From a virus (taxonomy: Duplodnaviria > Heunggongvirae > Uroviricota > Caudoviricetes), in IMG/VR virus record IMGVR_UViG_2534681762_000006: a stretch of DNA of 20,129 nt; one strand, written 5' to 3'. Made by a program: the position numbers and the translations under genes. Below the pieces are notes generated by a model, which was not told the DNA's origin, searched no databases, and saw only the letters and a list, made by a program, of their open reading frames with translations. Positions 1 through 18,668 of the stretch are shown here, piece after piece; positions within the stretch are counted from its first letter, which is position 1, and each line of letters opens with the position of its first letter.

Positions 1-88
1 CGTCACCTTCACCAATAAATTCATTAGTTCCGGCCAGCAGATTATAAATTGTTATGGTCCGTGGTTGTTCACTCATTCTGAATGCCAT
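1..88 (-). CDS. tfa: tail fiber assembly protein Tfa, N-terminal 29 codons only (gene runs off the left edge of the window)
   Basis: Minus-strand ATG at 86-88 overlaps the stf stop (TAATG). Hand translation gives [29 protein letters not shown], which matches the N-terminus I remember for lambdoid Tfa proteins. Not in the ORF track because it is truncated by the window edge. Confidence 0.65.
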
Positions 89-3048
89 TATGCAAGCCTC
101 ACAATATAGTTAAATGCGATGTTTTTGACGGTGTTTTCCGCGTTACCAGCAGCGTTAACGGTGATGGTGTGTCCATGTGAACCAATCGCAACGGAGTGCG
201 TGTGTGCACCAATACCGACAGTATGTGCGTGTGCACCTGCAGATGCTGCTGTGCCGGACAGTGAGTGGCTATGGTTACCATCTGTACTGGTATTAGCTAA
301 CGCCCCCGTAGACATACCTACTGAGCCTTGTACACCCCAGGTATTTTGACCTGAGCTTGTATAACCATATTGATAAGTATCTTTAAAAACACTGGGGTTA
401 AATCGACGGCCATCTCTATGGCTGTGATTACCAGCTGCATTCGTGCTGCCACTTAAACTATGGGTATGCGCACCAGTGTTATTCGTGGATTTAGTGCCGT
501 AATCAAACGACGATGTGGTTTTCGTCCCCAAATCAGTACTGGATGCGCTGGCGCTGTGGGTATGCGATTTTATGCCGTCCTGTTCCTGAGACAATACGGC
601 ACGACCACTGGCGGGCTTGCCCTTAATCGTCCAGCCACGCATATCAGGGATCACGCCTGACGGATAAGCAACTGCAAGTTTCGGGTAAGCAGATTTGTCA
701 AAAGTCTGCCCCTGCATCAGGGCATAGCCAGACGGAACGGTATCTGATGGCCACGGGATTGGTGCGCCAGGCGGATAAAACTGCTCTGATGGCGTATAGA
801 GTGAATAAACTGTACCGTCCGTTAACCCTTCCGGCTTATTAGCAGAATATGCTGGTGACGTATGAATCGTCACGCTGGCATTACTGGTATAATCCCATTG
901 AATATTTACACCAGTCGCATAATTTCCGATTGCAACGTAAATATCGTAAGTATCACCAGATGTATTGACCCAGGCAAAATTTGTAAACCCTGTCGATGTG
1001 CGCTGCCATAAAGCACCAGTAATCCCCTTCGGATTACCATTACCTGCACGTAAAACAAGTTCAGATATACCTGCCTGTTGAGGTGACCCCACGTTAAATC
1101 CAGCGCCACCAATCAACGTAATTGAAACAACAGAACTCGCCTGTGGCATGGTTACCGTTGCTAATTTGAACCAACCAGCACCACCGCTGAATGACATTGT
1201 TGTTGAGTTAAGCGTACCAATATCTTTCGGCGTCAGTGTTATATCCGCTGAAAGCGCCTTACCATTCACCTTACGGGCAGAAGGTACCCGACCATTCGCA
1301 TTGTCATTAGCTGCTTTCACTGCTTTCGGTGTCGCAGCAAGCGTTTCAGATGTGCTGTTGGTTGCACTACTGAGCTGGACAATTCCTTTTTGTGCTGTCG
1401 TAGCGTCCTGTGCGGTGTATTTCCCGTTAGCCAGGTCATACGCGGCCTTAACGGCTTTTGGCGTTGCCGCCAGTGACTCGGAAGTGCTGTTAGTCGCACT
1501 GCTGAGCTGAACTATCCCTTTCTGTGCTGTCGTTGCATCCTGTGCGGTGTATTTCCCGTTAGCCAGGTCATACGCGGCCTTAACGGCTTTTGGCGTTGCC
1601 GCCTGTGACTCGGAAGTGCTGTTGGTCGCACTGCTGAGCTGTACTATCCCCTTTTTCGTCGTGCTCGCATCCTCAAGCGCCACGGCGGATGCAATATCCT
1701 CTGCCCGTTTTGCTGCTGTCTCGGCGCGCGTTGCCGCGGATTCCGCCGTACTTTTGCTCTGTGCTGCCGCTGCCGCACTGCCAGCAGCCTCTGTCGCCTT
1801 CGTGGATGCCGTCGTGGCGCTGCCCCTCGCTGCTGACGCCTGTCTGGTCGCCTCATCTTTTGAAGCAGACGCAGATGATGCCGATGACGCCGCCGAACTG
1901 GCGGACGATGCGGCAGCCGTTTTTGAGGATTCTGCGCTGGTTTCCGACGCTTTCGCGTTCGTTTCGGATGTCTTCGCTGCGGAAGCAGACCTCGCTGCTG
2001 CGCTGGCCTGTTCAGTGGCTTCGCCAGCCTTCGTTGTGGCTGTTGAAGCGGATGATGCGGCGCTTTCTGCCGATTTTCCGGCGGCGGTGGCACTGACTGC
2101 TGCCTCCTCTGCCTTAATGGACGCCTCACGGGCCGATGATGCAGCTGCTGTCTCAGAGTCTGCCGCAGCTGAGGCGCTCTGTTCCGCTGCCGTTTCAGAA
2201 GACCTGGCATTCGTCTCGGACGTTTTTGCCGCCTTCACGGAATTTCCTGCCGCCGTTGCCGAGGAGGCTGCACTGCTGGCGCTTGTGGAGGCGTTCGTTT
2301 CTGATGATTTTGCCGCCTCTTTGGAGGCCGCCGCATCTCTGGCTGAAGTGGCGGCTTCTGACGCTTTCGTCGTCGCAGTGGATGCAGAAGTGGCTGCTGA
2401 TTTTTGTGACGCTGCAGCATTCGTTTCTGACGTTTTCGCCGCACCGGCACTGGTGGCCGCCGCGCTTTTTGAGGACTCTGCAGCGGCAGCACTTTTTGAT
2501 GCTTCAGTGGCCTTTGTTGATGCCGTTCCTGCGCTGGAAGACGCCTCCTGAGCCGAAGTCGCGGCCTGTCCGGCTGACGTGCTGGCTGCACGCGCTGAGC
2601 CTGCAGCATCAGTCGCATGGGTTGCCGCCTCACGGGCAGATGTGCCGGCATCACTGGCTGACTTCTTCGCGGCTGCCGTGTTCTGTGCCACCACGGACGC
2701 GTTACGCGCCACCTCTTCCACCATCAGTTCAAAACGGCGCAGAGCCTCCGGACGGGCATCATCCTCCGTCATGGCACCGAGAAAATCATTCAGCGTACCG
2801 GGTCGGGAATCTTCATACACGGTGATGGTCCCGGCATGTGACGGCGGGAATCCTTCCACCAACAGAATAACGCTGTACTGACCGTACTCAACGTCCATGC
2901 TGTAACGCCCGGCTTCATCCGGATTTTCTGAGGCCAGCGTGTTCACCACCACCGAGGTGCTGTTACGTTTTGCTTTCAGCTGGATTGTGCAGTTCTGTAC
3001 CGGTTTTCCTGTGCCGTCTTTCAGTACACCTGAAATCTTTACTGCCAT
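88..3048 (-). CDS. stf: side tail fiber protein Stf (about 986 aa), with a long Ala/Ser/Thr-rich shaft, three tandem 44-aa repeats and a His-rich C-terminal tip
   Basis: ORF 88..3054 (-). N-terminus [26 protein letters not shown] and C-terminus [24 protein letters not shown] match lambda Stf as I recall it. The likely true start is the ATG at 3046-3048; the ORF track begins at an upstream GTG. Confidence 0.9.
1270..1665 (-). repeat. three tandem in-frame 132-bp repeats inside stf, each encoding a 44-aa unit ([43 protein letters not shown])
   Basis: The string tgcggtgtatttcccgttagccaggtcatacgcggccttaacggcttttggcgttgccgcc recurs at about 1411 and 1543, a period of 132 bp. The protein shows three consecutive 44-aa units, the third diverged. 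Confidence 0.85.
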
Positions 3049-3056
3049 ATTCACCC

Positions 3057-3112: not shown

Positions 3113-3712
3113 TCAGAACTTATAACCGACACCCACGATGAAACCGTCAGTGCGCCAGTCGCCACTGCCGGAGCCTTCATAAGCAATATCAATGGCCACG
3201 GATTCGGTCGGGTTAAACTGCACGCCAGCTCCCCACGCCAGAGACGTGTTGCTGTGGCGACCGTCATCACTTCCGGTCAGCACGTCGTGCGTTTTCCCCT
3301 TGTTGTCAGTTACGCGGAGATAATCCCCGGAGAAAGTCGACACACGGCTGTAAGCCACACCCGCCATCGCATACGCGCTGAACCATTCATTCACGCGCAC
3401 AGACGGCCCCGCCATTACGCTGAACCAGCGGTTACGAACGGAATCTTCATGCCAGCGAGTATCGCTGTAATGGGTCAGCTGGCGATTCTTGTCTCCTGCA
3501 TAGCTGAATGACGTCACCAGCCCCAGCGTATCCGTAAACTCATAACGGTATTTCACGTTAATCCCGTTCAGATCATCACTGCCGGGAACGTTGGTCCGGG
3601 CATGAAGATACCCCGCGCTCAGCGTGGACTGATGTTCAGACGCCCATGCAGGCGCACCGGATACGGCCAGACAAATGGCTGCGGACAAAATGGCGGCACA
3701 AACTTTACGCAT
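3113..3712 (-). CDS. lom: Lom/Ail-family outer membrane beta-barrel protein (prophage moron)
   Basis: 199-aa ORF with an N-terminal signal peptide (MRKVCAAILSAAICLAVSGAPAWA) and the C-terminus IAYEGSGSGDWRTDGFIVGVGYKF shared with lambda Lom. It occupies the lambda position between J and stf. GAGAGG Shine-Dalgarno upstream of the ATG. Confidence 0.9.
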   Translation of the reverse strand: MRKVCAAILSAAICLAVSGAPAWASEHQSTLSAGYLHARTNVPGSDDLNGINVKYRYEFTDTLGLVTSFSYAGDKNRQLTHYSDTRWHEDSVRNRWFSVMAGPSVRVNEWFSAYAMAGVAYSRVSTFSGDYLRVTDNKGKTHDVLTGSDDGRHSNTSLAWGAGVQFNPTESVAIDIAYEGSGSGDWRTDGFIVGVGYKF

Positions 3713-3760: not shown

Positions 3761-3823
3761 ATTTATTGGGGTTATAAATATTTCAACGAATACTGATGCC
3801 GGAAGCCGCTTTTTTGGTCACAA

Positions 3824-4639
3824 TCACCGTACAGTCGGTGATATTGCCTGCCCCCTGATTGCCTTCTGGAAAATCTTAAACTCCAGAGTGACGCTACCAC
3901 CACCACTAGGCATATCAATAACTGCACTGTAACTACCGGGAATGGCCCCTTTAGTTTCTCTGGATGCGATTAATACGCCGTTTTTGCGAACTTCAAAACC
4001 ATAACCCGTGTATCGCGTGCCTCCCGAGTTATTTCCGCTCCCCGGATCGTCATACGCTATACCGTTAAAAATAATGGGCGGAATAATAATCTGGCGGTCA
4101 AAGTTATGATCATCGCTGATGGTGACTGTAACCGTACCGTCTGGTGTTTCCGTGTTACCCCACGTACCGACTTTTTTCGGGAAGGCTTTTGATACAGCTT
4201 TAACGAAATCCCCTCTGACCTGGGTCGCCTCCAGCATGCCCTTAATCGTACAGTTCTGGTTAATCGTGACATTGTTGAGCGTTCCTGAGTTCGCATTCAC
4301 ACTGCCACTGATATCCGCATTTTTAGCGGTCAGCTTTCCGTCTGATGTCAGGGAAAATACCGGAGGACTGCCACCACTGGTAATGGTGGGGGCCGTCAGG
4401 CGCTTCAGGAACACGTCGTTCATGAATATCTGATTGCCCTGCGCCACAAACATCGGCGTTTCATTCCCGTTTGCCGGGTCAATAAATGCGATACGGTTAG
4501 CGGCAACCAGAAACTGACTCAGTTTGCCTTCCTCCGTGTCCTCCATGCTGAGGCCAATACCCGCGACATAATGTTTGCCGTCTTTGGTCTGCTCAATTTT
4601 GACAGCCCACATGGCATTCCACTTATCGTTGGCGTCCTT
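3824..4639 (-). CDS. J: host specificity protein J, C-terminal receptor-binding segment, lying downstream of an in-frame TGA
   Basis: Same reading frame as ORF 4640..7195. The codons after the TGA read [81 protein letters not shown], which matches the lambda J C-terminal region as I recall it. The last ~150 aa diverge from lambda. Confidence 0.85.
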
Positions 4640-7198
<2,559 letters not shown>

Positions 7199-7217
7199 TC
7201 ACGCTCCATAAATGACA

Positions 7218-7237
7218 AAACCGCCCGCAGGCGGTTT
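7218..7237 (-). other. I-J intergenic stem-loop (possible weak terminator or attenuator)
   Basis: 8-bp stem aaaccgcc / ggcggttt with a 4-nt loop, followed on the minus-strand transcript by a moderately U-rich stretch and then the J ribosome-binding site. Confidence 0.35.
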
Positions 7238-7255
7238 CACATAAAACATTTTGCA

Positions 7256-7550
7256 TCAGCGACCAATCACCACAACCTGACCACCGTCCCCTTCGTCTGC
7301 CGTGCTGATCTCCTGAGAAACCACGCGAGACCCCACGCGCATTTCCCCGTACAGAACAGGCAGAACATTGCCCTGGGCAACCATGTTATCCAGTGAGGAG
7401 AAATAGGTGTTCTGCTTACCGTTATCCGTTGTCTGTGTACGGGGAGTTCTGGCTTTCGGTGCCAGCATCTGCGCCACACCACCGAGCACCATACTGGCAC
7501 CGAGAGAAAACAGGATGCCGGTCATACCACCGGTCCCAATGGCTGCCCCC
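7256..7550 (-). CDS. I: tail tip assembly protein I, C-terminal part, in the frame downstream of a 1-nt frameshift
   Basis: ORF 7256..7552 translates to MGAAIGTGGMTGILFSLGASMVLGGVAQMLAPKARTPRTQTTDNGKQNTYFSSLDNMVAQGNVLPVLYGEMRVGSRVVSQEISTADEGDGGQVVVIGR, matching the lambda gpI C-terminus. Confidence 0.85.
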
Positions 7551-7926
7551 ATGCTGCAAGGGTGGCTCCGGCGGTAAAGAATGATCCGGCAATGGCGGCA
7601 GCCCCCAGGACAATCTGGAATACGCCACCTGACTTGGCCCCGGCGACTCTGGGAACAATATGAATCACAGCGCCATCAGGCAGAGTCTCATGTAACTGCG
7701 CCGTTAACCCGGACGTGCTGACGTCCCGCCCGGCAATCCGTACCTGATACCAGCCGTCGCTCAGTTTCTGACGAAACGCCGGGAGCTGTGTGGCCAGTGC
7801 CCGGATGGCTTCAGCCCCCGTTTTCACACGAAGGTCGATGCGGCGACCAAATCGTTGTAAATCCCCGTAAAGGCAGATGCGCGCCATGCCCGGTGACGCC
7901 AGAGGGAGTGTGTGCGTCGCTGCCAT
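7546..7926 (-). CDS. I: tail tip assembly protein I, N-terminal part, in the frame upstream of the frameshift
   Basis: ORF 7522..7926 begins MAATHTLPLASPGMARICLYGDLQRFGRRIDLRVKTGAEAIRALATQLPAF, the lambda gpI N-terminus. After ...TLAAWG it leaves frame and ends in 7 missense codons. The start overlaps the K 3-prime end by 103 nt, as in lambda. Confidence 0.85.
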
Positions 7927-8567
7927 TTGTCGGTGTACCTCTCTCGTTTGCTCAGTTGTTCAGGAATATGGTGCAGCAGCTCGCCGTCGCCGCAGTAAAT
8001 TGCGGCGTGATTCGGCACTGATGAACCAAAACAGCACAGCAGCACATCGCCCGGCTGTGCCGCTGACAACGGCACCTGATACAGCCCCGTCGCCTCCAGA
8101 TTATCCAGATAGAGATTCTGGCCGTGACGCCACCAGTCATCCTCACGATAAAAGTCCGGCATCTCAATCCCCGCCAGATGATAAGCATCCCGGAACAGTG
8201 TGTAACAGTCCGTCACACCGTGCTCAAAGCGCCGCCCGGAAAGATGCGGCACACAGCGGAACTTATGAATCGTCCCCCGGCAGACCAGCCACCACGGCAA
8301 ATCACTCTGCACCTGCAGCCGCCGGTCGGCCTCACTCAGCCAGGGCAGACCACCGGGGTGGCTGTGGACCAGCGCCACAATCTCACCCTGCATTTCTGCC
8401 TGCAGCCAGTCTTCCGGCGACATACGGAAATACGCCTCCGGCTCACCGGAGATATTCACGCAGGGAAAATATCTTTCCCCCTCCGGCGTGCTTACCACGA
8501 AGCCGCACGACTCCGCTGGCGCACATCGCCGGGCGTGCGCCAGAATCGCTGATTCTGTCTGTGTCAT
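7824..8567 (-). CDS. K: tail tip assembly protein K (MPN/JAB plus NlpC/P60 domains); long form 247 aa from ATG at 8565-8567, lambda-annotated short form 199 aa from ATG at 8421-8423
   Basis: Translation matches lambda gpK. The open frame extends 48 codons upstream of the conventional start with no stop, and that extension contains AESCGFVV, which resembles the conserved Glu of the JAMM motif that precedes HSHPGG. Confidence 0.85.
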   Translation of the reverse strand: MTQTESAILAHARRCAPAESCGFVVSTPEGERYFPCVNISGEPEAYFRMSPEDWLQAEMQGEIVALVHSHPGGLPWLSEADRRLQVQSDLPWWLVCRGTIHKFRCVPHLSGRRFEHGVTDCYTLFRDAYHLAGIEMPDFYREDDWWRHGQNLYLDNLEATGLYQVPLSAAQPGDVLLCCFGSSVPNHAAIYCGDGELLHHIPEQLSKRERYTDKWQRRTHSLWRHRAWRASAFTGIYNDLVAASTFV

Positions 8568-8572
8568 GGGAT

Positions 8573-9271
8573 TTACTGCGAAAGTTTGTTAATGGAAAGG
8601 AAGCCGCCAAAGTTGCCGACGTTATTGCGGAACTTACAACCGCTCAGGCATTTGCTGCATTTATCCTTCGTGATATCGGACGTTGGCTGGTCATATTCAT
8701 CCGCGACAGCCGGACCGCTATAACCGCACTCGTCACCGCGATAGGTCCAGGTGCAGGTGTTGGCCAGCATGATACGTCCCGGAAAAACAGCGCCATCCGT
8801 TTCCGTCGGCGTGGACAGTACAAAGGAGGCACTCACCGCGCTCAGTTCGCTGCACTGCTCAATGCGCCAGCGGCTGATCACCTCCTGCTCCGGATCGGCG
8901 TAACTGTTTCCGTTGACGAAGTTCACCGCATCCAGAAAACGGGCGTAAACCTTACGCCGGACCACCGTTCCGCCGACCAGACTCTGCATATCTTCCGCCA
9001 TCCCGGTGACCATACCGTACAGGTTAGAAACCGTCAGCGTGGGGCGCGTACTGGTGCCTTTGCCATTCAGTTCAAAACCGCTCCCCTGAATGGGATACGG
9101 CTGATACTGTCGCCCCTGCCAGGTGACCGGCTCACCTTTTTCGTTCTGCTCATTACAGAAAAAATAACGTTCTCCACCGACCTCTGTCAGGTCGATTTCC
9201 CAGAGCACCACGCTGGCCGACTGCTCCGCACGGGTGCATTCATTCAGTGTTTCCTGCCGGATATCCTGCAT
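8573..9271 (-). CDS. L: tail tip assembly protein L
   Basis: 232 aa, the same length as lambda gpL. Starts MQDIRQETLNECTRAEQSASVVLWEIDLTEVGGERYFFCNEQNEKGEPVTWQGRQYQPYPIQGSGFELNGKG. Confidence 0.9.
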   Translation of the reverse strand: MQDIRQETLNECTRAEQSASVVLWEIDLTEVGGERYFFCNEQNEKGEPVTWQGRQYQPYPIQGSGFELNGKGTSTRPTLTVSNLYGMVTGMAEDMQSLVGGTVVRRKVYARFLDAVNFVNGNSYADPEQEVISRWRIEQCSELSAVSASFVLSTPTETDGAVFPGRIMLANTCTWTYRGDECGYSGPAVADEYDQPTSDITKDKCSKCLSGCKFRNNVGNFGGFLSINKLSQ

Positions 9272-9600
9272 CAGTTCACCACCTGTTCAAACTCTGCGCT
9301 GAACTCAACACGCAACATACTGACCCGCGACGACCATTTTGCGCAGGTCACCTTTATCTGCCGCCACTCATAAGGCGGCGTCCACAGAAAGGATTTCCAG
9401 CCCCCGTGCTCTTCCAGAAACGACTCCAGTACCGTGGCCTCCTCACGGGGGACAGAAAGCGTCACGCTGTACGTTTTCAGGTTGGCATTCAGCCCGGCAG
9501 GCGCTCGCTGAGAATAGCCATCACCAAAGCGCACCTTTCTTACAGAAGGGACCGAAGCCACATCCATACCGGGTTTCACTTTCCAGCGGAAGGTCTTCAT
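9271..9600 (-). CDS. M: tail tip assembly protein M
   Basis: 109 aa, the same length as lambda gpM. Its start overlaps the H stop by 4 nt (ATGA) and its stop abuts the L start, as in lambda. Confidence 0.9.
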   Translation of the reverse strand: MKTFRWKVKPGMDVASVPSVRKVRFGDGYSQRAPAGLNANLKTYSVTLSVPREEATVLESFLEEHGGWKSFLWTPPYEWRQIKVTCAKWSSRVSMLRVEFSAEFEQVVN

Positions 9601-10301
9601 CGTCCACCTCCGGAGAACAGGCCACCATCACGCATCTGTGTCTGAATTTCATCACGGGCACCCTTGCGGGCCATGTCATACACCGCCTTCAGAGCAGCCG
9701 GACCTATCTGCCCGTTCGTGCCGTCGTTGTTAATCACCACATGGTTATTCTGCTCAAACGTCCCGGACGCCTGCGACCGGCTGTCTGCCATGCTGCCCGG
9801 TGTACCGACATAACCGCCGGTGGCATAGCCGCGCATCAGCCGGTAAAGATTCCCCACGCCAATCCGGCTGGTTGCCTCCTTCGTGAAGACAAATTCACCA
9901 CGGTGAACAATCCCCGCTGGCTCATATTTGCCGCCGGTTCCCGTAAATCCTCCGGTTGCAAAATGGAATTTCGCCGCAGCGGCCTGAATGGCTGTACCGC
10001 CTGACGCGGATGCGCCGCCACCAACAGCCCCGCCAATGGCGCTGCCGATACTCCCGACAATCCCCACCATTGCCTGCTTAAGCAGAATTTCTGTCATCAT
10101 GGACAGCACGGAACGGGTGAAGCTGCGCCAGTTCTGCTCACTGCCGGTCAGCATCGCCGCCATATTCTGTGCAATACCATCAAAGGTCTGCGTGGCTGCA
10201 CTTTTTACCTGCGACATACTGTCCGTGGCGCTCTCTTCCCACTCACTCCAGCCGGACTTCAGGCCTGCCATCCAGCTCCCGCGAAGCTGGTCTTCAGCCG
10301 C
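9597..10301 (-). CDS. H: tail tape measure protein H, C-terminal segment (234 codons) downstream of an in-frame TAG
   Basis: In frame with ORF 10302..12158. It reads AAEDQLRGSWMAGLKSGWSEWEESATDSMSQVKSAATQTFDGIAQNMAAM...RDGGLFSGGGR, matching the lambda gpH C-terminus. Confidence 0.88.
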   Translation of the reverse strand, partial: AAEDQLRGSWMAGLKSGWSEWEESATDSMSQVKSAATQTFDGIAQNMAAMLTGSEQNWRSFTRSVLSMMTEILLKQAMVGIVGSIGSAIGGAVGGGASASGGTAIQAAAAKFHFATGGFTGTGGKYEPAGIVHRGEFVFTKEATSRIGVGNLYRLMRGYATGGYVGTPGSMADSRSQASGTFEQNNHVVINNDGTNGQIGPAALKAVYDMARKGARDEIQTQMRDGGLFSGGGR

Positions 10302-12158
10302 CTAGGTCTTTTTCTGCTCTGACATGACGTTATTCAGCGCCAGCGGATTATCGCCATACTGTTCCTTCAGGCGCTGTTCCGTGGCTTCCCGTTCTGCCTG
10401 CCGGTCAGTCAGCCCCCGGCTTTTCGCATCAATGGCGGCCCGTTTTGCCCGTTGCTGCTGTGCGAATTTATCCGCCTGCTGCGCCAGCGCGTTCAGGCGC
10501 TCCTGATACGTAACCTTGTCGCCAAGTGCAGCCAGCTGGCGTTTGTACTCCAGCGTCTCATCTTTATGCGCCAGCAGGGATTTCTCCTGTGCGGACAGCT
10601 GGCGACGTTGTGCCGCCTCCTCCAGTACCGCGAACTGACTTTCTGCCTTCCACAAATCCCGGCGCTGCTGGCTGATTTTCTCATTCGCTCCGGCATGCTT
10701 CTCCAGCGTCCGGAGTTCTGCCTGAAGCGTCAGCAGGGCAGCATGAGCACTGTCTTCCTGACGATCGCCCGCAGACACCTTCACGCCGGACTGTTTCGGC
10801 TTTTTCAGCGTCGCTTCATAATCCTTTTTCGCCGCCGCCATCAGCGTGTTGTAATCCGCCTGCAGGATTTTCCCGTCTTTCAGTGCCTTGTTCAGTTCTT
10901 CCTGACGGGCGGTATATTTCTCCAGCGGCGTCTGCAGCCGTTCGTAAGCCTTCTGCGCCTCTTCGGTATATTTCAGCCGTGACGCTTCGGTATCGCTCTG
11001 CTGCTGCGCATTTTTGTCCTGTTGAGTCTGCTGCTCAGCCTTCTTTCGGGCGGCTTCAAGCGCAAGACGGGCCTTTTCACGATCATCCCAGTAACGCGCC
11101 CGCGCTTCATCGTTAACAAAATAATCATCCTTGCGCAGATTCCAGATGTCGTCTGCTTTCTTAAACGCAGCCTCTGCCTTAATCAGCATCTCCTGCGCGG
11201 TATCAGGACGACCAATATCCAGCACCGCATCCCACATGGATTTGAATGCCCGTGCTGTCCTGTCTGCCCAGGTTTCCAGCGTGCCCATGTTCTCTTTCAA
11301 GCGTCGGGTCTGGTCATCAAACCCTTTCGTTGCGGCCTCGTTCGCCGCCTGCAATGCCCCGGCTTCATCGCCGGAACGCTGCAACTGAGCAACATACGCA
11401 ATCTGCTCCGCCGTCACGTTATGGAACTGGCGTGCCATCGCCGTCAGCCCCGACGTCGGGTCTGTGGTCAGCTTCCCGAAGGCTTCAGCGACCTTGTCCA
11501 CCTCCACGCCGGATGCAGAGGAGAAACGCGCCACACTCTGGCTGATGGACGCAATCTGAGCCTCACCGCTTACCCCCGCCTTAACCAGTGCGCTGAGTGA
11601 CTCGCTGGTCTGGTTAAACGTCAGCCCTGCCGCCTGCCCGGCTCTGGACAGGACCAGCATACGATCTGCCGTCAGTCCCGCCTGATTGCCGGAAAGGACC
11701 AGCGTTTTGTTGAAATCGGACAGGGTTGAGTTGCCCTGATACCAGGCATACGCCAGCGCTCCGGTCGCCACCGCCAGCGAGGTAGCCCCCACCATCGGCA
11801 GGGTGATCGCACCGGCAAGCCCCCGGAACATGGGGATCATCCCGCCGAAGGAGTCCTTCACCTGACCCCCCTGTTGCAGCAGGATCAGCCACGGACTTTG
11901 CCCGCCTGCAAGCTGCGTGGCCACGTCAGTGAACTGCGCAGGCAGCATACGCATGGCGGCTTTATACTGCCCGACGGAAATTCCCGCTTTCTGTGCAGCC
12001 AGCGCCTGCCGGTTCATCGACTGTTCAACGACTGCCGCTGTTTTTTTCGCATCACTTTCCGTACCGGAAAAATGACGCCTGACTCTGGCCATCTGCTCGT
12101 CAAATCTGGCCGCATCCAGACTCAAATCAACGACCAGATCGCCTACCGGTTCAGCCAT
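10302..12158 (-). CDS. H: tail tape measure protein H, N-terminal 618 codons, ending at an in-frame TAG (10302-10304)
   Basis: Starts MAEPVGDLVVDLSLDAARFDEQMARVRRHFSGTESDAKKTAAVVEQS. The segments total 618 + 1 + 234 = 853 codons, exactly the lambda gpH length. The stop sits where I recall Trp in lambda (...MSEQKKT-W-AAEDQL). Confidence 0.9.
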   Translation of the reverse strand: MAEPVGDLVVDLSLDAARFDEQMARVRRHFSGTESDAKKTAAVVEQSMNRQALAAQKAGISVGQYKAAMRMLPAQFTDVATQLAGGQSPWLILLQQGGQVKDSFGGMIPMFRGLAGAITLPMVGATSLAVATGALAYAWYQGNSTLSDFNKTLVLSGNQAGLTADRMLVLSRAGQAAGLTFNQTSESLSALVKAGVSGEAQIASISQSVARFSSASGVEVDKVAEAFGKLTTDPTSGLTAMARQFHNVTAEQIAYVAQLQRSGDEAGALQAANEAATKGFDDQTRRLKENMGTLETWADRTARAFKSMWDAVLDIGRPDTAQEMLIKAEAAFKKADDIWNLRKDDYFVNDEARARYWDDREKARLALEAARKKAEQQTQQDKNAQQQSDTEASRLKYTEEAQKAYERLQTPLEKYTARQEELNKALKDGKILQADYNTLMAAAKKDYEATLKKPKQSGVKVSAGDRQEDSAHAALLTLQAELRTLEKHAGANEKISQQRRDLWKAESQFAVLEEAAQRRQLSAQEKSLLAHKDETLEYKRQLAALGDKVTYQERLNALAQQADKFAQQQRAKRAAIDAKSRGLTDRQAEREATEQRLKEQYGDNPLALNNVMSEQKKT

Positions 12159-12585
12159 ACCGGACTCCTCCTGCGATCCCTTCTGATACTGTCATCAGCA
12201 TTACGTCATCCTCCGTCATGTCCGCCACATCCGGGGAAGCGGGGATAACTTCATTCCCGTCCGGGCCAAAGCGGACGCCTCCGGCAAGCCCTGCCGCTTT
12301 CTGCATCAGCACATCATCTTCAGGCTCTTCGTCAGCCTCGCGCCGGTTCAGCAGACTGAAATCCAGCGGATGCATATCCGGATCGCTGAAAAACAGGCTG
12401 AGTACGGTGTACGTCAGCCCGGAAAAGTGCATATCCAGCAGAACATCATGAAAATAATGGGTACTGTAAAAGCGGTGCCAGTCGGCATACTCCGTGGATG
12501 ACATCCCGGCAAGCATGGCGCGCCAGTCGGGTCGCCCCATCTCACGCGCCAGTTTCAGGGCAAAACTCAGCTCACCGTCGAACAC
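12151..12585 (-). CDS. T: T-frame of the tail assembly chaperone, expressed only as a G-T fusion by programmed -1 frameshifting (the listed start is an ORF-caller artefact)
   Basis: ORF translation (M)FDGELSFALKLAREMGRPDWRAMLAGMSSTEYADWHRFYSTHYFHDVLL matches the lambda T-frame. It overlaps H by 8 nt and G by 19 nt, as in lambda. Confidence 0.85.
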   Translation of the reverse strand: MFDGELSFALKLAREMGRPDWRAMLAGMSSTEYADWHRFYSTHYFHDVLLDMHFSGLTYTVLSLFFSDPDMHPLDFSLLNRREADEEPEDDVLMQKAAGLAGGVRFGPDGNEVIPASPDVADMTEDDVMLMTVSEGIAGGVRYG

Positions 12586-12989
12586 TTTCCCGCAGAAACA
12601 GGCTCTGCTGGCCCGGCGTCATCTGCCTGTTCAGGTGCATCATTCACAACAAACTCAGACATACCGGACAGACGCATTACCACATTTTCAGCCTGAGCAA
12701 TTGCCTCTGTGGGCCAGGTGGTAAGCACTTCCTGCTCAATTTGTTTAACGGCTTCATTCATGGACGGCATCTTTGTCTTCTGCGGATGGCTATGCCACAG
12801 GGACATCGCCACCAGAAAAGCACCGGTTCTGACGAGATCTTCCACGCTCACCTGTCGATTGAGACTGGATCCCGCCTGTTCTGCCTGTCGTTTCAGCAGG
12901 GCGAGATGCTCAATTCGCTGCAGGGCTGACAGTTCAGAAAGCGTGACGCTCACACCGTTATATTCAAATGATTCGGTTTTCAGGAACAT
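12567..12989 (-). CDS. G: tail assembly chaperone G
   Basis: 140 aa, the same length as lambda gpG: MFLKTESFEYNGVSVTLSELSALQRIEHLALLKRQAEQAGS... Confidence 0.9.
   Translation of the reverse strand: MFLKTESFEYNGVSVTLSELSALQRIEHLALLKRQAEQAGSSLNRQVSVEDLVRTGAFLVAMSLWHSHPQKTKMPSMNEAVKQIEQEVLTTWPTEAIAQAENVVMRLSGMSEFVVNDAPEQADDAGPAEPVSAGKCSTVS
12585..12591 (-). other. programmed -1 ribosomal frameshift slippery heptamer G_GGA_AAG (G to G-T fusion)
   Basis: Plus-strand ctttccc at 12585-12591 is GGGAAAG on the minus strand. In the G frame the codons are GCG GGA AAG UGU; after a -1 slip the reading is GGG AAA GUG UUC GAC..., giving the T-frame sequence VFDGELSF. Confidence 0.85.
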
Positions 12990-13004: not shown

Positions 13005-13745
13005 TTAACTGTCGGTGACGGTGATTTCTGCAACCACAGCAAGTTCACCATTACCGGATACAACCGGAATGTTGACCTTGCCTGCAGCAACACCTTTCAC
13101 GGTGATGGTCATACCACTGACCGACACGGTGGCTTTTGTTTTATCCGCAGACACCGCACGGAAGCTCTTGTCGGTTGCGCCTTCCGGCTGGAATGCCACG
13201 GTCAGCGTGGTGCTCTGCCCTTTCACCACCGAAGTGCTGGCAGGCGTCACGGTCATGCCGGTTGCCGCTGTTACCGTGCTGCGATCTTCTGCCATCGACG
13301 GACGTCCCACGTTGGTGACTTTCACCGTGCGGGTGATCACTTCCTTCGCCGTCACCGCCTTACCGATACTGCTGACCCAGCCGCGAAACACATCGACCGT
13401 GCCGTTCGGGAAGCGGATTTTATAGGCACGGGTATCCCCTTCATTAAACCACGCCAGCAGCGCCTGCTGCCCCTGCTCTCCGGGCATCCACGCCAGCGTG
13501 AAGCTGGTATCTCCGGCAGATTTCTGCCCCTGCCCGGTCGCAGTCCAGTCCGCATCTTCATCATCGAGATAGCTGTCGTCATAGGACTCAGCGGTCAGTT
13601 CGCCGGGCGTCAGGTCTTTAACTTTAGCCAGACGCGACCAGTCAACGTCTGAAAGCGGGTTCGCATAAGGGTCACCGTTCCCCTTATAAACCCACAGTGT
13701 GGTCCCGGCCCCTTTCACCGGCATTACTGGATTTGGTACAGGCAT
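13005..13745 (-). CDS. V: major tail tube protein V
   Basis: Start chosen at ATG 13743-13745 ([22 protein letters not shown]...), giving 246 aa as in lambda gpV. The ORF track extends to an upstream ATG at 13775, which would overlap U. GAGGA Shine-Dalgarno 4 nt upstream. Confidence 0.88.
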
Positions 13746-13752
13746 AGCGTCC

Positions 13753-14148
13753 TCACATTTCATAGGTAATGACATAAGTCAGATCGGCTGAACTCCACAG
13801 GCCCGCATCATCGTCGCGCCGGTAGTCATAGCCACTGGCCACCAAACTGGTGATCAAATCTGACAGTGCCGGGACATCGCTCATCACCGGATAAATCCGG
13901 GACTCCATCCACGAATCCAGCTCTGAATCCGGCACCTGAGCAGGCAGGAAAACTTCAATATGCAGCTCCGCCTGCCAGGTATCACTGTCCAGCTCTTCGC
14001 CCGTGTATTCAGCGCCGGTGAGATAAACGGCAATTGCCGGAAAATCCGCCTCATCAAAAACAGCGGGGCGACCATCAAAAAGCGTCGCCCCGGTGTCATG
14101 CTTCTCCAGTGCATCCAGTACGGCTGCACGGAGTTCAGTATGTTTCAT
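13753..14148 (-). CDS. U: tail terminator protein U
   Basis: 131 aa, the same length as lambda gpU: [54 protein letters not shown]... Overlaps Z by 4 nt. Confidence 0.9.
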
Positions 14149-14723
14149 CGCTTTATTACCATTCTCAGTTGATGCTGCAGCGCATAGCCCAGCTCTTTCG
14201 GAAGACGTTCACGCCGTATCCGTTCAATATTCTGTTTAAACGCCGTGGTAAGCGGCACCGCCATCGGGATTTTCACCACATCAATGGGGTAACGGTTTTT
14301 CCCGGCCACACGCTGCATGACATGCCACCGGCCATTTTTCAGTTGCTGAATAAACGCGCCGGGAATACGACGGTTTCCCACCACAAGCACGCTGCCGCCA
14401 CCTTTCAGGGATGAACGCTGCCCCTTTTTACGACGTCTGCGGCGGGAAAGGACAACCCGCGCGTTACCCAGCTTGATTACGGGCAAATCCCCCCGGTTAA
14501 CCCTGATTCTGGCCTGCGGATTTTTGACCGTGGCCCTTTTCAGCCTGGCCCTTTCCTTTACCAGTTTCCGGCGTACCTTTGTCTCACGGGCAACCTGTGA
14601 CGCAGACTGCGATATCGCGGATGACGCAACGCGGTTAATGGCCATTGCGGCGGCACCAGGCACCGCCGTTTTGCTGATACGGCTGAGGTTTTCAACGGCC
14701 TGCTCAAGACCTTTTATGGCCAT
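14145..14723 (-). CDS. Z: tail completion (head-tail joining) protein Z
   Basis: 192 aa, the same length as lambda gpZ. Confidence 0.88.
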   Translation of the reverse strand: MAIKGLEQAVENLSRISKTAVPGAAAMAINRVASSAISQSASQVARETKVRRKLVKERARLKRATVKNPQARIRVNRGDLPVIKLGNARVVLSRRRRRKKGQRSSLKGGGSVLVVGNRRIPGAFIQQLKNGRWHVMQRVAGKNRYPIDVVKIPMAVPLTTAFKQNIERIRRERLPKELGYALQHQLRMVIKR

Positions 14724-14734
14724 ACATCCCCCTT

Positions 14735-15088
14735 TCAGCGGCGACGGTTAACGGCAGGCGGCACGCCACGCCCAAGCCAGAGATGACAGCTTCCGCCATC
14801 ATCCGGCGAAATCCGGTCCACCCAGAAGTTTTCCTCGCCGATGGTCAGCGTGTCGCCGCGCCGCAGCTGCCGCACATCATCAGTCCGGACAAACAGGGAC
14901 GGGCTGGAGCCTTCAACGCGCACCCCCTGTCCGGCATAGCTGATATTTTCAGGGTCATCAAAAACACCACGTATCACAGCACCGGACAGCTCACCGGATG
15001 TCATGGTGGCTGACGTTCCCATGTACCCGCGTATCGTTTCATCGGCGCGGGCAATGGCAGCATCGAACAGGTTATCGGAATCAGCCAC
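14735..15088 (-). CDS. FII: head-tail connector protein FII
   Basis: 117 aa, the same length as lambda gpFII: MADSDNLFDAAIARADETIRGYMGTSATMTSGELSGAVIRGVFDDPENISYAG... Confidence 0.88.
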   Translation of the reverse strand: MADSDNLFDAAIARADETIRGYMGTSATMTSGELSGAVIRGVFDDPENISYAGQGVRVEGSSPSLFVRTDDVRQLRRGDTLTIGEENFWVDRISPDDGGSCHLWLGRGVPPAVNRRR

Positions 15089-15099
15089 AGCGCCTCCCG

Positions 15100-15498
15100 T
15101 TATTGCATTCTGGCCAGGCCATGTTCTGTCATTTCGGCTGCCACACCGGCAGAGACACGAAACGCCGTTCCCGGCAGCACAAATGCCACAGGCTCATCCC
15201 GCGTGGCGTGAAGTGCATCAGTATGCAGCGTCACCAGTGCCACGACCGTGACCAGAGCAGCCGTATCAATCACGGTATCCGGCTGCGCTGATACCACCTC
15301 ATTTTCATGTCCGGTCAGCGCATTTTCCGGGCTGACAGATGTGTCCTGACCGGCAGCGTCATCCGTGTCATCAAGCTCCTCTTCCAGCTCTGCCACACGG
15401 AGCACCAGTTCTTCTTTCGTCCCCGTCAGGCTGACATCACGGTTCAGTTGTTCACCCAGCGAGCGGAGACGGGCAATCAGTTCATCTTTCGTCATGGA
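15100..15498 (-). CDS. FI: DNA packaging / head assembly protein FI
   Basis: Start chosen at ATG 15496-15498 (MTKDELIARLRSLGEQLNRDVSLTGTKEEL...), giving 132 aa as in lambda gpFI, with a GGAGGAG Shine-Dalgarno upstream. The ORF track starts 12 codons further upstream. Confidence 0.88.
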   Translation of the reverse strand, partial: SMTKDELIARLRSLGEQLNRDVSLTGTKEELVLRVAELEEELDDTDDAAGQDTSVSPENALTGHENEVVSAQPDTVIDTAALVTVVALVTLHTDALHATRDEPVAFVLPGTAFRVSAGVAAEMTEHGLARMQ

Positions 15499-15536: not shown

Positions 15537-15572
15537 TTACGCCAGTTGTACGGACACGAACTCATCAGGATC
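15537..15572 (-). pseudogene. E: 3-prime remnant of major capsid gene E (last 11 codons DPDEFVSVQLA plus stop), separated from the rest of E by the IS66 insertion
   Basis: Hand translation of the minus strand gives GAT CCT GAT GAG TTC GTG TCC GTA CAA CTG GCG TAA. It is contiguous with the E fragment at 18661.. once the IS and one TSD copy are removed. Confidence 0.85.
15565..15572. repeat. target-site duplication TCAGGATC, left copy
   Basis: Identical 8-mer immediately outside both IS ends. Removing the IS and one copy rebuilds an uninterrupted E sequence (gaactcatcaggatcagccaacag on the plus strand). Confidence 0.9.
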
Positions 15573-15657
15573 GTAACCGTCTCATTTAAACCGTCTTTCG
15601 CCTCCCTTTCCTGTTTCCGATACTAATGTCCATTTTCGCAGTAAAGGGACATTTAAG

Positions 15658-16308
15658 ATGAATGCACGAAAAGCGGTACTGGCAGACAATCCGGAATTGA
15701 TCCTGCGTGTGCTACAACTGAGATTTGACGAGTCACTGTCGTACCCGCGCATTTCTGCGCAGACCGGTATCAGCAAAACCGCCATTTTTTCTCTGGTGAG
15801 GCGATTTCACCAGGTATTCACTGACTGGCCTCTTTCCGGAGAATATTCCTGCGTGCAACTGGCCCGGGCTCTGTTCCCGGGGCGATACCCTTCAGCCCCG
15901 ACAGTGACTCAGCCTGTGAAAACAGAGAAAATCCGCCGGAACCGATTTTCACCGGAGTTTAAATGGAGGCTTGTTCAGCAAACTCTTTTACCCGGTGCCT
16001 GTGTCGCACAAATAGCTCGTGAGAACGGAATCAACGATAACCTGCTCTTTAACTGGCGGCATCTCTGGCGTAACGGCGGCCTGCAGCCGACCGGCGAACA
16101 TGAAACATCGCTACTTCCCGTGACGTTAACTCCGGAGCCGGATAATAAAATCCCGGCACCAGTGCAGATACCTGAACAGATAAATACACCGCCCGACAGT
16201 CTGTGCTGTGAGCTGGTTCTGCCGGCCGGAACTCTCAGGCTGAAAGGTGAACTGACACCGGCGTTATTACAGACACTTATCCGCGAAATGAAAGGGAGCA
16301 GCCACTAA
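15658..16308 (+). CDS. tnpA: IS66-family accessory protein TnpA (Orf1), helix-turn-helix
   Basis: 216-aa ORF, first gene of the IS. Its stop overlaps the tnpB start (ATGA). Contains a transposase-like helix-turn-helix region (RRNRFSPEFKWRLVQQTLLPGACVAQIARENGINDNLLFNWR). Confidence 0.75.
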   Translation: MNARKAVLADNPELILRVLQLRFDESLSYPRISAQTGISKTAIFSLVRRFHQVFTDWPLSGEYSCVQLARALFPGRYPSAPTVTQPVKTEKIRRNRFSPEFKWRLVQQTLLPGACVAQIARENGINDNLLFNWRHLWRNGGLQPTGEHETSLLPVTLTPEPDNKIPAPVQIPEQINTPPDSLCCELVLPAGTLRLKGELTPALLQTLIREMKGSSH

Positions 16309-16655
16309 TGATATCTCTCCCTGCCGGTTCGCGTATCTGGCTGGTTGCCGGTATCACCGACATGCGAAATGGTTTTAACGGCCTGGCATCAAAAGTTCAG
16401 AACGTCCTGAAGGATGACCCGTTCTCCGGGCATCTGTTCATCTTCCGCGGACGCCGGGGTGACCAGATAAAAGTGTTGTGGGCTGACAGTGACGGACTGT
16501 GCCTCTTCACCAAACGCCTGGAGCGGGGCCGCTTCGTCTGGCCGGTTACCCGTGACGGCAAGGTGCACCTTACTCCGGCTCAGTTATCTATGCTTCTTGA
16601 AGGTATCAACTGGAAGCACCCGAAACGAACGGAACGCGCTGGCATCCGCATATAA
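16308..16655 (+). CDS. tnpB: IS66-family protein TnpB (Orf2)
   Basis: 115 aa: MISLPAGSRIWLVAGITDMRNGFNGLASKVQNVLKDDPFSGHLFIFRGRRGDQIKVLWADSDGLCLFTKRLERGRFVWP, the typical IS66 Orf2. Confidence 0.88.
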   Translation: MISLPAGSRIWLVAGITDMRNGFNGLASKVQNVLKDDPFSGHLFIFRGRRGDQIKVLWADSDGLCLFTKRLERGRFVWPVTRDGKVHLTPAQLSMLLEGINWKHPKRTERAGIRI

Positions 16656-16674
16656 CCCGTTGTAAAGTGAGGAT

Positions 16675-18228
16675 ATGGACACCTCACTTGCTCATGAGAA
16701 TGCCCGCCTGCGGGCACTGTTGCAGACGCAACAGGACACCATCCGCCAGATGGCGAAATACAACCGCCTGCTCTCACAGCGGGTGGCGGCTTATGCTTCC
16801 GAAATCAACCGGCTGAAGGCGCTGGTTGCGAAACTGCAGCGCATGCAGTTCGGTAAAAGCTCAGAAAAACTTCGCGCTAAAACCGAACGGCAGATACAGG
16901 AAGCCCAGGAGCGAATCAGCGCACTTCAGGAAGAAATGGCGGAAACGCTGGGTGAGCAATATGACCCGGTACTGCCATCCGCCCTGCGCCAGTCTTCAGC
17001 CCGTAAGCCGTTACCGGCCTCACTTCCCCGTGAAACCCGGGTCATCCGGCCGGAAGAGGAATGCTGCCCGGCCTGTGGTGGTGACCTCAGTCCTCTGGGG
17101 TGTGATGTGTCAGAGCAACTGGAGCTTATCAGCAGCGCTTTTAAGGTTATCGAAACACAACGTCCGAAACTGGCCTGTTGCCGGTGCGACCATATCGTGC
17201 AGGCACCAGTACCTTCAAAACCCATTGCACGCAGTTATGCCGGAGCGGGGCTTCTGGCTCATATCGTCACCGGGAAGTATGCAGACCATCTGCCGTTATA
17301 CCGCCAGTCAGAAATATACCTTCGTCAGGGCGTGGAACTGAGCCGCGCCACGCTGGGGCGCTGGACCGGTGCCGTTGCTGAACTGCTGGAGCCGCTGTAT
17401 GACGTGCTGCGCCAGTATGTGCTGATGCCCGGTAAAGTCCATGCGGATGATATCCCCGTTCCGGTCCAGGAGCCGGGCAGTGGTAAAACAAGAACTGCCC
17501 GGCTGTGGGTCTATGTCCGTGATGACCGTAACGCCGGTTCACAGATGCCCCCGGCGGTCTGGTTCGCGTACAGCCCGGACCGGAAAGGTATCCATCCACA
17601 GAATCACCTGGCCGGTTACAGCGGTGTGCTTCAGGCAGATGCTTACGGTGGTTACCGGGCGTTATACGAATCCGGCAGAATAACGGAAGCCGCGTGTATG
17701 GCCCATGCCCGGAGAAAAATCCACGATGTGCATGCAAGAGTGCCAACCGACATCACCACGGAAGCCCTGCAGCGTATCGGTGAACTGTATGTCATCGAGG
17801 CAGAAGTCCGGGGATGTTCAGCAGAACAGCGTCTGGCAGCAAGAAAAGCCAGAGCGGCTCCACTGATGCAGTCACTGTATGACTGGATACAGGAACAGAT
17901 GAAAACACTGTCGCGTCACTCGGATACGGCAAAAGCGTTCGCATACCTGCTGAAACAGTGGGAGGCCCTGAACGTGTACTGCAGTAATGGCTGGGTGGAA
18001 ATCGACAACAACATCGCAGAGAACGCCTTACGGGGAGTGGCCGTAGGCCGGAGAAACTGGCTCTTCGCGGGTTCCGACAGCGGTGGCGAACATGCGGCGG
18101 TGTTGTACTCGCTGATCGGCACATGCCGTCTGAACAATGTAGAGTCCAGAAAAATGGCTTGCGTTACGTTATTGAGCATATCCAGGACTGGCCGGCAAAC
18201 CGGGTACGCGAATCTGTTGCCCTGGTAA
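16675..18228 (+). CDS. tnpC: IS66-family DDE transposase TnpC, C-terminus frameshifted inside the first unit of the tandem duplication
   Basis: 517-aa ORF with an N-terminal coiled-coil and a CxxC...CxxC zinc-ribbon-like motif (CPACGG...CCRCDH). It ends ...[34 protein letters not shown], whereas the duplicated unit and the second IS copy read ...[37 protein letters not shown](T/S)SQ. Confidence 0.88.
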
Positions 18229-18660
18229 AGTTGATCTGACTTCTCAGTAAATATCAATACGGTTCTGGCGAGCCGCTTACAGATGAAAACACTGTCGCGT
18301 CACTCGGATACGGCAAAAGCGTTCGCATACCTGCTGAAACAGTGGGAGGCCCTGAACGTGTACTGCAGTAATGGCTGGGTGGAAATCGACAACAACATCG
18401 CAGAGAACGCCTTACGGGGAGTGGCCGTAGGCCGGAAAAACTGGCTCTTCGCGGGTTCCGACAGCGGTGGCGAACATGCGGCGGTGTTGTACTCGCTGAT
18501 CGGCACATGCCGTCTGAACAATGTAGAGCCAGAAAAATGGCTGCGTTACGTTATTGAGCATATCCAGGACTGGCCGGCAAACCGGGTACGCGATCTGTTG
18601 CCCTGGAAAGTTGATCTGACTTCTCAGTAAATATCAATACGGTTCTGGCGAGCCGCTTAC
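17897..18660 (+). repeat. direct tandem duplication of the IS66 right end: unit 1 at 17897..18280 (384 bp) and unit 2 at 18281..18660 (380 bp), each ending in the right inverted repeat
   Basis: Unit 2 repeats unit 1 from agatgaaaacactgtcgcgtcactcgg through gagccgcttac. Unit 1 differs by four 1-nt insertions (gagtccag vs gagccag; ggcttgcg vs ggctgcg; gcgaatctg vs gcgatctg; ccctggtaaag vs ccctggaaag) and one substitution (ggagaaactgg vs ggaaaaactgg). Confidence 0.9.
18283..18630 (+). CDS. TnpC C-terminal fragment (115 aa) encoded by duplication unit 2; an intact version of the transposase C-terminus
   Basis: [115 protein letters not shown]. Near-identical to the C-terminus of the second IS copy. 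Confidence 0.7.
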   Translation: MKTLSRHSDTAKAFAYLLKQWEALNVYCSNGWVEIDNNIAENALRGVAVGRKNWLFAGSDSGGEHAAVLYSLIGTCRLNNVEPEKWLRYVIEHIQDWPANRVRDLLPWKVDLTSQ

Positions 18661-18668
18661 TCAGGATC
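18661..18668. repeat. target-site duplication TCAGGATC, right copy
   Basis: See the left copy. 8 bp is the characteristic target-site duplication length for IS66-family elements. Confidence 0.9.

Follow-up and report, generated by a model that had tools for sequence, protein, structure and literature searches.

The window, i.e. the whole stretch of 20,129 nt analysed here, very probably represents the tail half of a lambda-type prophage, one already non-functional and now in neutral decay. The prophage is an ordinary dead lambda-like remnant in a draft E. coli genome. A functional prophage requires major capsid, tape measure and tail tip genes in working order, which this one lacks: the capsid gene E is cut twice, and H (tape measure), I (tail tip assembly protein) and J (tail tip/host specificity) are disrupted by exactly four point lesions, the repair of which gives back full-length proteins. 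The interruption of E by IS66-family elements leaves the prophage dead regardless of the state of H, I and J. The original prediction had described three lesions in an otherwise intact late region; both the fourth lesion, a second one in J, and the insertions in E depart from that description.

The whole window is one draft contig (AQEJ01000040.1), in which the genes lie in the collinear order FI-FII-Z-U-V-G-T-H-M-L-K-I-J-lom-stf-tfa, as established from the Pfam families of each gene and from alignments to lambda and E. coli prophages. The contig is bounded by repeats, namely tfa on the left and IS66 on the right, and as it ends in these repeats only the tail half of the prophage is visible, the remainder lying on other contigs. 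The closest finished E. coli genome shows 99.0% identity over the region and 97.3% over the window, and no phage record spanning at least 80% of the window was found.

E sits just upstream of FI and is distributed, together with its insertions, as follows.

15537 to 15572, minus strand: end of E, the last ~11 codons of the major capsid gene, closing with the target-site duplicate TCAGGATC (15565-15572).
15573 to 18660, plus strand: IS66-family element inside E, with the 8-bp direct repeat TCAGGATC on both sides.
15658 to 16308, 16308 to 16655 and 16675 to 18228, plus strand: the IS66 ORFs for TnpA, TnpB and the transposase, respectively, all three with NCBIfam hits above cut-off.
18661 to 19398, minus strand: middle of E, 738 nt, Phage_cap_E.
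19399 to 20129, minus strand: second IS66-family element, inverted, 99.7-99.9% identical to ISCro1-family copies.

The three ORFs, the GTAAGCG-type terminal repeats and the 8-bp target duplication place the first element in the IS66 family; its right-terminal ~382 bp are present in two copies, the second at 18281-18660. The other element cuts E ~260 nt from the gene start and extends to the contig end. E has been struck twice by IS66-family transposition.

The four small mutations that disable H, I and J, probably all spontaneous, are located within these three genes as follows.

9597 to 12158, minus strand: H pseudogene, tape measure, with a single in-frame amber codon; 846 of 853 residues identical to lambda H.
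10302 to 10304, minus strand: H lesion, Trp619 TGG to TAG in a Dcm site (CCTGG to CCTAG), established by sequence comparison and also present in NKEQ01000071.1 (L005).
7256 to 7926, minus strand: I pseudogene, 671 nt; adding back one G restores a 223-aa lambda-like I.
7546 to 7550, minus strand: I lesion, a G6 to G5 homopolymer deletion, seen as a C5 run on the plus strand.
3783 to 7195, minus strand: J pseudogene with two lesions; fixing one deletion and one stop gives a 1137-aa frame, of the same length as in relatives.
4640 to 4642, minus strand: first J lesion, Trp852 TGG to TGA, where relatives have TGG.
3864 to 3865, minus strand: second J lesion, a 1-nt deletion (AAA to AA on the gene strand; TT on the plus strand vs. 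TTT in relatives).

The H lesion is real and inherited, as the amber codon is present in an independent assembly: the window and NKEQ01000071.1 are 100% identical from 15649 to 9101 (6.5 kb) and share the E::IS junction as well as this codon, base for base. The H frame reads through 853 codons with this one in-frame TAG, whereas all intact relatives have TGG at the position; the nearest intact allele shows 3 differences in 2562 nt, the TAG being one of them. In its codon context (ACC TGG GCG to ACC TAG GCG), the change is a G:C to A:T transition at the inner C of CCWGG. The module has 14 Dcm positions at which an amber codon can arise, this being one of them; H itself has three Dcm amber sites (gene positions 415, 889 and 1855), next to ~89 other transition-nonsense sites. 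The cytosine of Dcm sites is a classic hotspot of 5-methylcytosine deamination, the amber hotspots of lacI and of lambda cI being the textbook examples. Trp619 would have been lost in the same manner, the methylated inner C of the opposite strand having been changed to T. CCWGG sites are documented as G:C to A:T hotspots (PMC13250602, PMC2715241). The same TAG is rare, being found at 1 of 4847 homologous places in finished genomes, and also occurs in L033 and L041, that is on three H backgrounds of which none are each other's closest relatives. The amber is thus met again in prophages that are unrelated, so that a lesion held in common is no proof of common descent; the recurrence could instead reflect short-tract recombination rather than independent mutation. 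Looking up the C-terminal fragment of H returned many matches, mostly from noisy long-read assemblies.

In J, the TGA would represent a second G:C to A:T change of a Trp codon to a stop, to which a 1-nt deletion near the 3' end would have been added. The deletion shifts the last ~27 codons and creates a premature stop at 3824-3826; the ancestral stop lies at 3783-3785, and the true frame ends at 3783, not 3824. The segments surrounding both lesions are identical to intact alleles, and in finished E. coli genomes the TGA allele had 0 exact matches at 979 homologous places, as had the deletion allele at 1980 places in finished genomes. An exact look-up of both J fragments and of stf gave no match beyond this contig.

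I differs from an intact allele at 2 positions. One G may have been dropped by replication slippage from its G6 run; in the ancestral module, only two other G/C runs reach a length of 6 or more. Of 2566 places in finished genomes, 1 matches the G5 allele exactly, in a copy that is annotated as frameshifted. The identical frameshift product is found in 157 collection blocks, mainly noisy long-read assemblies, and the look-up of the I fragments likewise returned many matches, mostly from such assemblies. The run is a recurrent frameshift site that is usually an error in long-read assemblies, which makes a split I alone weak evidence of decay.

Such observations bear on the most serious alternative, namely that the lesions, in part or in full, are consensus errors of a 2013 draft assembly and that the genes are intact in the cell, a reading that appears rather unlikely as a whole. 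Two of the four lesions are 1-nt homopolymer deletions (G6 to G5 and A3 to A2), the error class typical of pyrosequencing and nanopore data; the I frameshift is shared with many plainly noisy assemblies; and the I and J lesions of this prophage were found in one assembly only. Against this, the H amber codon is reproduced in an independent assembly, errors creating TGA by substitution are rare in consensus sequence, and real lesions are to be expected anyway in a prophage killed by E::IS66. In addition, the contig is otherwise clean: at the other ~60 homopolymers of at least 5 nt, the phage part has no net indel vs. relatives, six genes are 100% identical in DNA to alleles elsewhere, and the 12 neighbouring genes as well as the three IS66 ORFs are open. 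The original prediction had left prophage decay and assembly error side by side. Decay gains from the second assembly carrying both the H amber and the E::IS66 junction, and from lesions that are rare in finished genomes and lie on near-identical intact backgrounds; error is excluded for H only and may still account for the two 1-nt deletions in homopolymers.

The neighbouring genes were indeed found open, as predicted, and mostly with exact lambda lengths.

1 to 87, minus strand: 5' start of tfa, tail fibre assembly, a 29-aa partial cut by the contig end, matching the lambda orf-194/tfa region at 97.8%.
88 to 3054, minus strand: stf, side tail fibre, intact, 986-988 aa; open and 99.3% identical to the intact 986-aa allele of L002.
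3113 to 3712, minus strand: lom, Ail/Lom outer-membrane protein, intact, 199 aa; Pfam Ail_Lom, 100% identical to the L002 allele.
7824 to 8567, minus strand: K, intact, 247 aa, by comparison with lambda (as for M, V, U, Z, FII and FI below).
8573 to 9271, minus strand: L, intact, 232 aa, with DNA matching lambda L at 100%.
9271 to 9600, minus strand: M, intact, 109 aa.
12151 to 12585, minus strand: T frame, intact, 144 codons, identical to lambda T.
12567 to 12989, minus strand: G, tail chaperone, intact; G-T slippery heptamer GGGAAAG at 12585-12591.
13005 to 13745, minus strand: V, major tail protein, intact, 246 aa.
13753 to 14148, minus strand: U, intact, 131 aa.
14145 to 14723, minus strand: Z, intact, 192 aa.
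14735 to 15088, minus strand: FII, intact, 117 aa.
15100 to 15495, minus strand: FI, intact, 131 aa.

Lambda lengths are exactly kept in FII, Z, U, V, G, T, M and L, while FI is shorter by one residue and lom by seven. The difference between K and the 199 aa annotated in lambda is one of start-codon choice only, the 247-aa call being that of relatives; likewise, stf matches the 986 aa of relatives and is not comparable with lambda, where it is split (orf-401 + orf-314). The signal for the programmed -1 frameshift of G-T is present, with GGGAAAG near the end of G and T open in the -1 frame.

The original prediction also saw in the concentration of lesions in H, I and J something special, which the present analysis does not bear out, as this clustering is not beyond chance. 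When lesions are placed at random on 15.2 kb of coding sequence, a span no larger than that observed has P=0.31 for three lesions and P=0.20 for four; the probability of all lesions falling in H, I and J is 0.083 (three) or 0.036 (four), for a statistic chosen post hoc. By length, these genes together make up 43% of the coding sequence, and they offer 50% of the G:C to A:T nonsense target, H and J accounting for 45% of the transition-nonsense target. Under neutral decay, the hits in H and J would follow from the size of these two targets, by far the largest, and the hit in I from its long G/C run, of which there are few, whereas the twelve small neighbours would be intact because too little time has elapsed. 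Besides the lesions, ~9 window-specific substitutions were counted in 11.3 kb of genes with a close panel allele; after dropping variation shared with panel alleles, 5 are synonymous and 4 nonsynonymous, too few for a meaningful dN/dS, and pairwise dN/dS vs. relatives would mostly reflect the history before inactivation. Nonsense changes represent 2 of the ~11 window-specific substitutions, somewhat above the 3-5% expected, an excess that appears compatible with mutational hotspots and with the choice of the window for having lesions.

It is quite improbable that the hits were non-random, either because hotspots (the Dcm site of H Trp619 and the G6 run of I) make these tail genes predictable early casualties or because selection favours their loss once the capsid is broken; if true, lesion patterns in such remnants would be partly deterministic. 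Still less credence can be given to selected inactivation in the lysogen, whereby the loss of H, I and J would be favoured while lom, stf and the other tail genes would be retained because they serve the host. The intactness of lom and stf, the confinement of all four point lesions to H, I and J (with the post hoc P given above) and the large part that disabling changes take among the few window-specific ones would fit such a scenario. In the assembly of the lambda tail, however, L, K, M, G and T share the tail-tip/initiator pathway with H, I and J. As these genes are intact here, no functional partition separates the lost from the kept; moreover, H and J are the largest genes with unremarkable span tests, two lesions sit at mutational hotspots, the lesions are rare and not conserved, and the private substitutions are too few to show constraint on the intact genes.

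Lesions in other late genes of related prophages follow no pattern: they comprise A::IS66, a stop in K and C::IS66, frameshifts in the portal gene and V together with an H stop, and frameshifts in K and I, with stf also among the lesioned genes. Together with the two hits in E, such lesions elsewhere in the late genes are of the kind that the original prediction had itself named as grounds for refuting it, and domestication of the module, as selection on the surviving genes, is supported by nothing here. Programmed recoding, by which the TAG, the TGA and the frameshift would be read through or shifted (through a suppressor tRNA or a slippery run) to make full-length proteins, was rejected as scarcely conceivable: although the operon already uses a -1 frameshift in G-T and bacterial in-frame stops with readthrough exist (PMC7918605), the stops and the G5 run are not conserved among homologues, where they are nearly absent (1/4847, 0/979 and 1/2566 places), their occurrences elsewhere sit in decaying prophages and annotated pseudogenes, and J would require two recoding events in a prophage whose destroyed E leaves no functional context.

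The pattern is most probably that of generalised neutral decay of a defective prophage and leaves the understanding of phage biology unchanged. For annotation, H, I and J are to be described as pseudogenes, J with two lesions and a frame ending at 3783, E as IS-disrupted and the prophage as defective.

With respect to known systems, the region resembles the lambda late operon (NC_001416) in its collinear genes and in the equal lengths of FII, Z, U, V, G, T, H, M and L. At the protein level, identity ranges from 86% (G) to 100% across FI, FII, Z, U, V, G, T, H, M, L and K, with T, M and L identical and the G-T slippery site kept. It differs from lambda by its DNA identity of ~97%, so that it is not lambda itself, by a lom only ~46% identical, by other alleles of stf and of the J C-terminus, as well as by the pseudogenes H, I and J and the IS-disrupted E. 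A laboratory sus/amber mutant of lambda was considered and rejected in view of the same ~97% DNA identity, of just one amber stop and of the presence of IS66. Defective lambdoid prophages are exemplified by Rac, Qin and DLP12 of K-12 and by the Sp prophages of O157:H7 Sakai. Like such cryptic prophages, the remnant has morphogenesis genes inactivated by IS insertions, nonsense mutations or frameshifts among many neighbours that are still open, a mixture also seen in the related prophages compared here; unlike the cryptic prophages, it is early in point-mutational decay, with few private substitutions. Defective and cryptic E. coli prophages are covered in a review (PMC6379469).

A last parallel is found in stf of lambda PaPa, the laboratory lambda, where a 1-nt deletion in the tail fibre gene gave orf-401 and orf-314. 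In both cases a one-base frameshift is carried silently in a tail gene and leaves two adjacent ORFs (the split being visible in NC_001416), but in the present prophage stf is intact and the frameshifts lie in I and J instead.

With high confidence, the damage in this lambda-like prophage is best explained as decay that proceeded neutrally in an element already dead, two of its lesions lying at classical mutational hotspots. The prophage failed the membership test for a functional prophage and is one more of the defective lambdoid prophages well known from E. coli. The window (20,129 bases) corresponds to draft contig AQEJ01000040.1 (assembly GCA_000355115.2) in its entirety. Its minus strand carries the tail half of a late operon of lambda type, an assignment on which Pfam families agree with collinear alignments to both lambda and E. 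coli prophages and which membership tests also confirm:

first 87 nt, minus strand, tfa
88-3054, minus strand, stf
3113-3712, minus strand, lom
3783-7195, minus strand, J (tail tip, host specificity)
7256-7926, minus strand, I (tail tip assembly)
7824-8567, minus strand, K
8573-9271, minus strand, L
9271-9600, minus strand, M
9597-12158, minus strand, H (tape measure)
12151-12585, minus strand, T
12567-12989, minus strand, G
13005-13745, minus strand, V
13753-14148, minus strand, U
14145-14723, minus strand, Z
14735-15088, minus strand, FII
15100-15495, minus strand, FI

The same element is absent from finished E. coli genomes, the best match being 97.3% identical across the window as a whole and 99.0% across the H-J region. 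The twelve neighbours of H, I and J, originally described as intact at exact or near-exact lambda lengths, are indeed all open, with exact lambda lengths for FII, Z, U, V, G, T, M and L, one residue fewer in FI and seven fewer in lom, but the length match extends neither to K, whose 247 aa vs. the 199 annotated in lambda reflect start-codon choice only and agree with relatives, nor to stf, which has 986 aa as in relatives and is split in lambda, hence precluding the comparison. The G-T slippery heptamer is retained.

All three lesions first reported, namely a TAG in H, a 1-nt deletion in I and a TGA in J, are present in the window. The H frame comprises 853 codons with a single TAG at 10302-10304, where every intact relative has TGG; I, at 671 nt, is one G short of a G6 run (CCCCC on the plus strand at 7546-7550, against six C in relatives and lambda); and in J a TGA at 4640-4642 replaces the TGG of relatives. 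J was thought to bear this lesion only and to end at 3824, whereas alignment to three relatives uncovered a second net 1-nt deletion at 3864-3865 (AAA to AA on the gene strand), so that the stop at 3824 is frameshift-induced and the ancestral one lies at 3783. Putting back two bases and two Trp codons returns all three genes to full length (853 aa for H, 223 aa for I and 1137 aa for J), so the point lesions number exactly four.

Besides, gene E, 42 nt upstream of FI, is destroyed, which the original prediction had missed. An IS66-family element at 15573-18660, with intact TnpA, TnpB and transposase ORFs, ~94% identity to ISCro1 and an 8-bp target duplication (TCAGGATC; one duplication around the whole composite), leaves the final ~11 codons of E cut off from the middle of the gene (18661-19398); the element was confirmed as an IS66 insertion by the membership test. 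A second IS66 element (19399-20129), ISCro1-like and in opposite orientation, shares 99.7-99.9% identity with copies of the ISCro1 family found in other genomes; it interrupts E once more at 19399 and continues to the contig end. Both contig ends thus lie in repeats, tfa on the left and this element on the right, which is why the assembly broke there. Of note, the right-terminal ~382 bp of the first element is tandemly repeated (18281-18660 is 98.7% identical to 17895-18280), which is either an artefact of repeat assembly or a one-ended duplication of an unusual kind. ISCro1-type IS66 has independently struck different head genes in close relatives, i.e. terminase A in 2013C-3181 and protease C in O26 strains, besides E here (L002 21563-26195 and L003 18460-22486, two loci with related prophages; window 15537-20129), which suggests that IS66 repeatedly targets, or is tolerated by, prophages of this family.

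Regarding assembly error, contig NKEQ01000071.1 (7,019 bp) of the independent assembly GCA_002462765.1 matches the window at 100% identity between 15649 and 9101, a stretch that spans the H TAG as well as the E junction with the initial 77 nt of its IS66 element. The H amber and the E::IS66 insertion are therefore real and shared by descent. The sole differences are 18 clustered mismatches near that contig's end, packed into 112 bp of gene L (window 8989-9100), which stem either from a chimeric consensus built on paralogous copies or from a short tract that recombined in from another lambdoid prophage. Error, one of the two explanations initially offered, is thereby set aside for H; no other contig of the collection carries either J fragment or stf, so that the J and I lesions are only probably real. 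That one or both homopolymer deletions (I and J) are assembly errors is the main rival, though an improbable one. The collection lists the same I frameshift product (101 aa + 98 aa) in 157 blocks, which belong mostly to noisy long-read assemblies with genes fragmented throughout, and noisy loci retrieved for another reason show it as well, vs. 1 of 2566 places in finished genomes. The G6 run is a recurrent frameshift site in lambda-type I (window 7546-7550; retrieved loci L008-L029, L031, L039 and L042) and likely a systematic consensus-error hotspot. Against a generally error-prone assembly argue the other ~60 homopolymer runs of at least five in the phage part, which show no net indel, the neighbouring genes and IS66 ORFs, all open, and six genes DNA-identical to alleles elsewhere. 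Were these deletions errors, the prophage would be judged defective all the same.

As to mechanism, the H change (ACC TGG GCG to ACC TAG GCG) turns the Dcm site CCTGG into CCTAG and would result from C to T at the methylated inner cytosine of the complementary strand; deamination of 5-methylcytosine to thymine makes CCWGG sites recognised hotspots of G:C to A:T change (PMC13250602, PMC2715241). The module holds 24 Dcm sites and 14 positions where a Dcm-type change creates an amber, three of them in H. The same TAG at H Trp619 is found in KB733071.1 (L033, 5952-5954) and strain OkiPb01695 (L041, H gene 9178-11739), whose H alleles differ from that of the window at 32 and 43 positions, respectively, the window's closest allele being intact. 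As the three TAG-bearing alleles are not each other's closest relatives, the common lesion does not imply common ancestry, and its independent recurrence at the hotspot is a more economical reading than spread among prophages by short-tract recombination. The I deletion sits in a G/C run of at least six, of which the ancestral module has only three, the J TGA is, like the H TAG, a G:C to A:T Trp-to-stop transition, and the J deletion falls in a short A run; we infer the mechanisms of all four lesions from such sequence context.

The special clustering proposed for H, I and J was not supported. These genes make up 43% of the module coding length and 50% of its G:C to A:T nonsense target; in simulations, lesions placed at random had a span as short as that observed, or shorter, with P=0.31 for three lesions and 0.20 for four, and all landed in H/I/J with P=0.083 or 0.036, the latter a statistic picked post hoc and ignoring hotspots. 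In lambda, L, K, M, G and T act with H, I and J in the tail-tip initiator pathway; these same-pathway genes being intact, damage specific to tail tip and tape measure lacks a functional partition. Lesions elsewhere in the late genes, which the original prediction had itself taken as the sign of unselected, generalised decay, are found in related prophages (A::IS66; K stop and C::IS66; portal and V frameshifts; K and I frameshifts; stf::IS2) and here as E::IS66. From the proposed recent decay of a domesticated prophage, decay is thus retained, with H amber and E::IS66 in a second assembly, while selected inactivation of H/I/J is unlikely.

The closest intact H allele, that of strain Evo1, shows 3 differences over 2562 nt, TAG included, and the 300-nt stretches enclosing the two J lesions match intact alleles exactly. 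Window-specific substitutions amount to six in J (4 synonymous, 2 nonsynonymous; vs. a 13-allele panel) and, in the remaining genes with close alleles, to one synonymous and two nonsynonymous, plus the TAG. Among homologous places in finished E. coli genomes, the H TAG 65-mer occurs at 1 of 4847, the I G5 run at 1 of 2566, the J TGA at none of 979 and the J deletion at none of 1980; PGAP calls the carriers' genes pseudogenes, in prophages bearing further lesions. The four lesions appear sporadic, recent and of deleterious type rather than conserved features. Programmed recoding is unlikely, the lesion alleles failing that membership test as rare and not conserved in finished genomes.

Long antisense ORFs on the plus strand at 4571-6103 (510 aa), 7877-9373 (498 aa) and 1547-2551 (334 aa), facing J, K-L and stf, respectively, most likely arose by chance within coding sequence that is GC-rich. 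The Ail/Lom outer-membrane protein gene lom (3113-3712), of lysogenic-conversion type, is 100% identical to the 2013C-3181 allele and only ~46% to lambda Lom, and may be the sole gene in the window under host-level selection.
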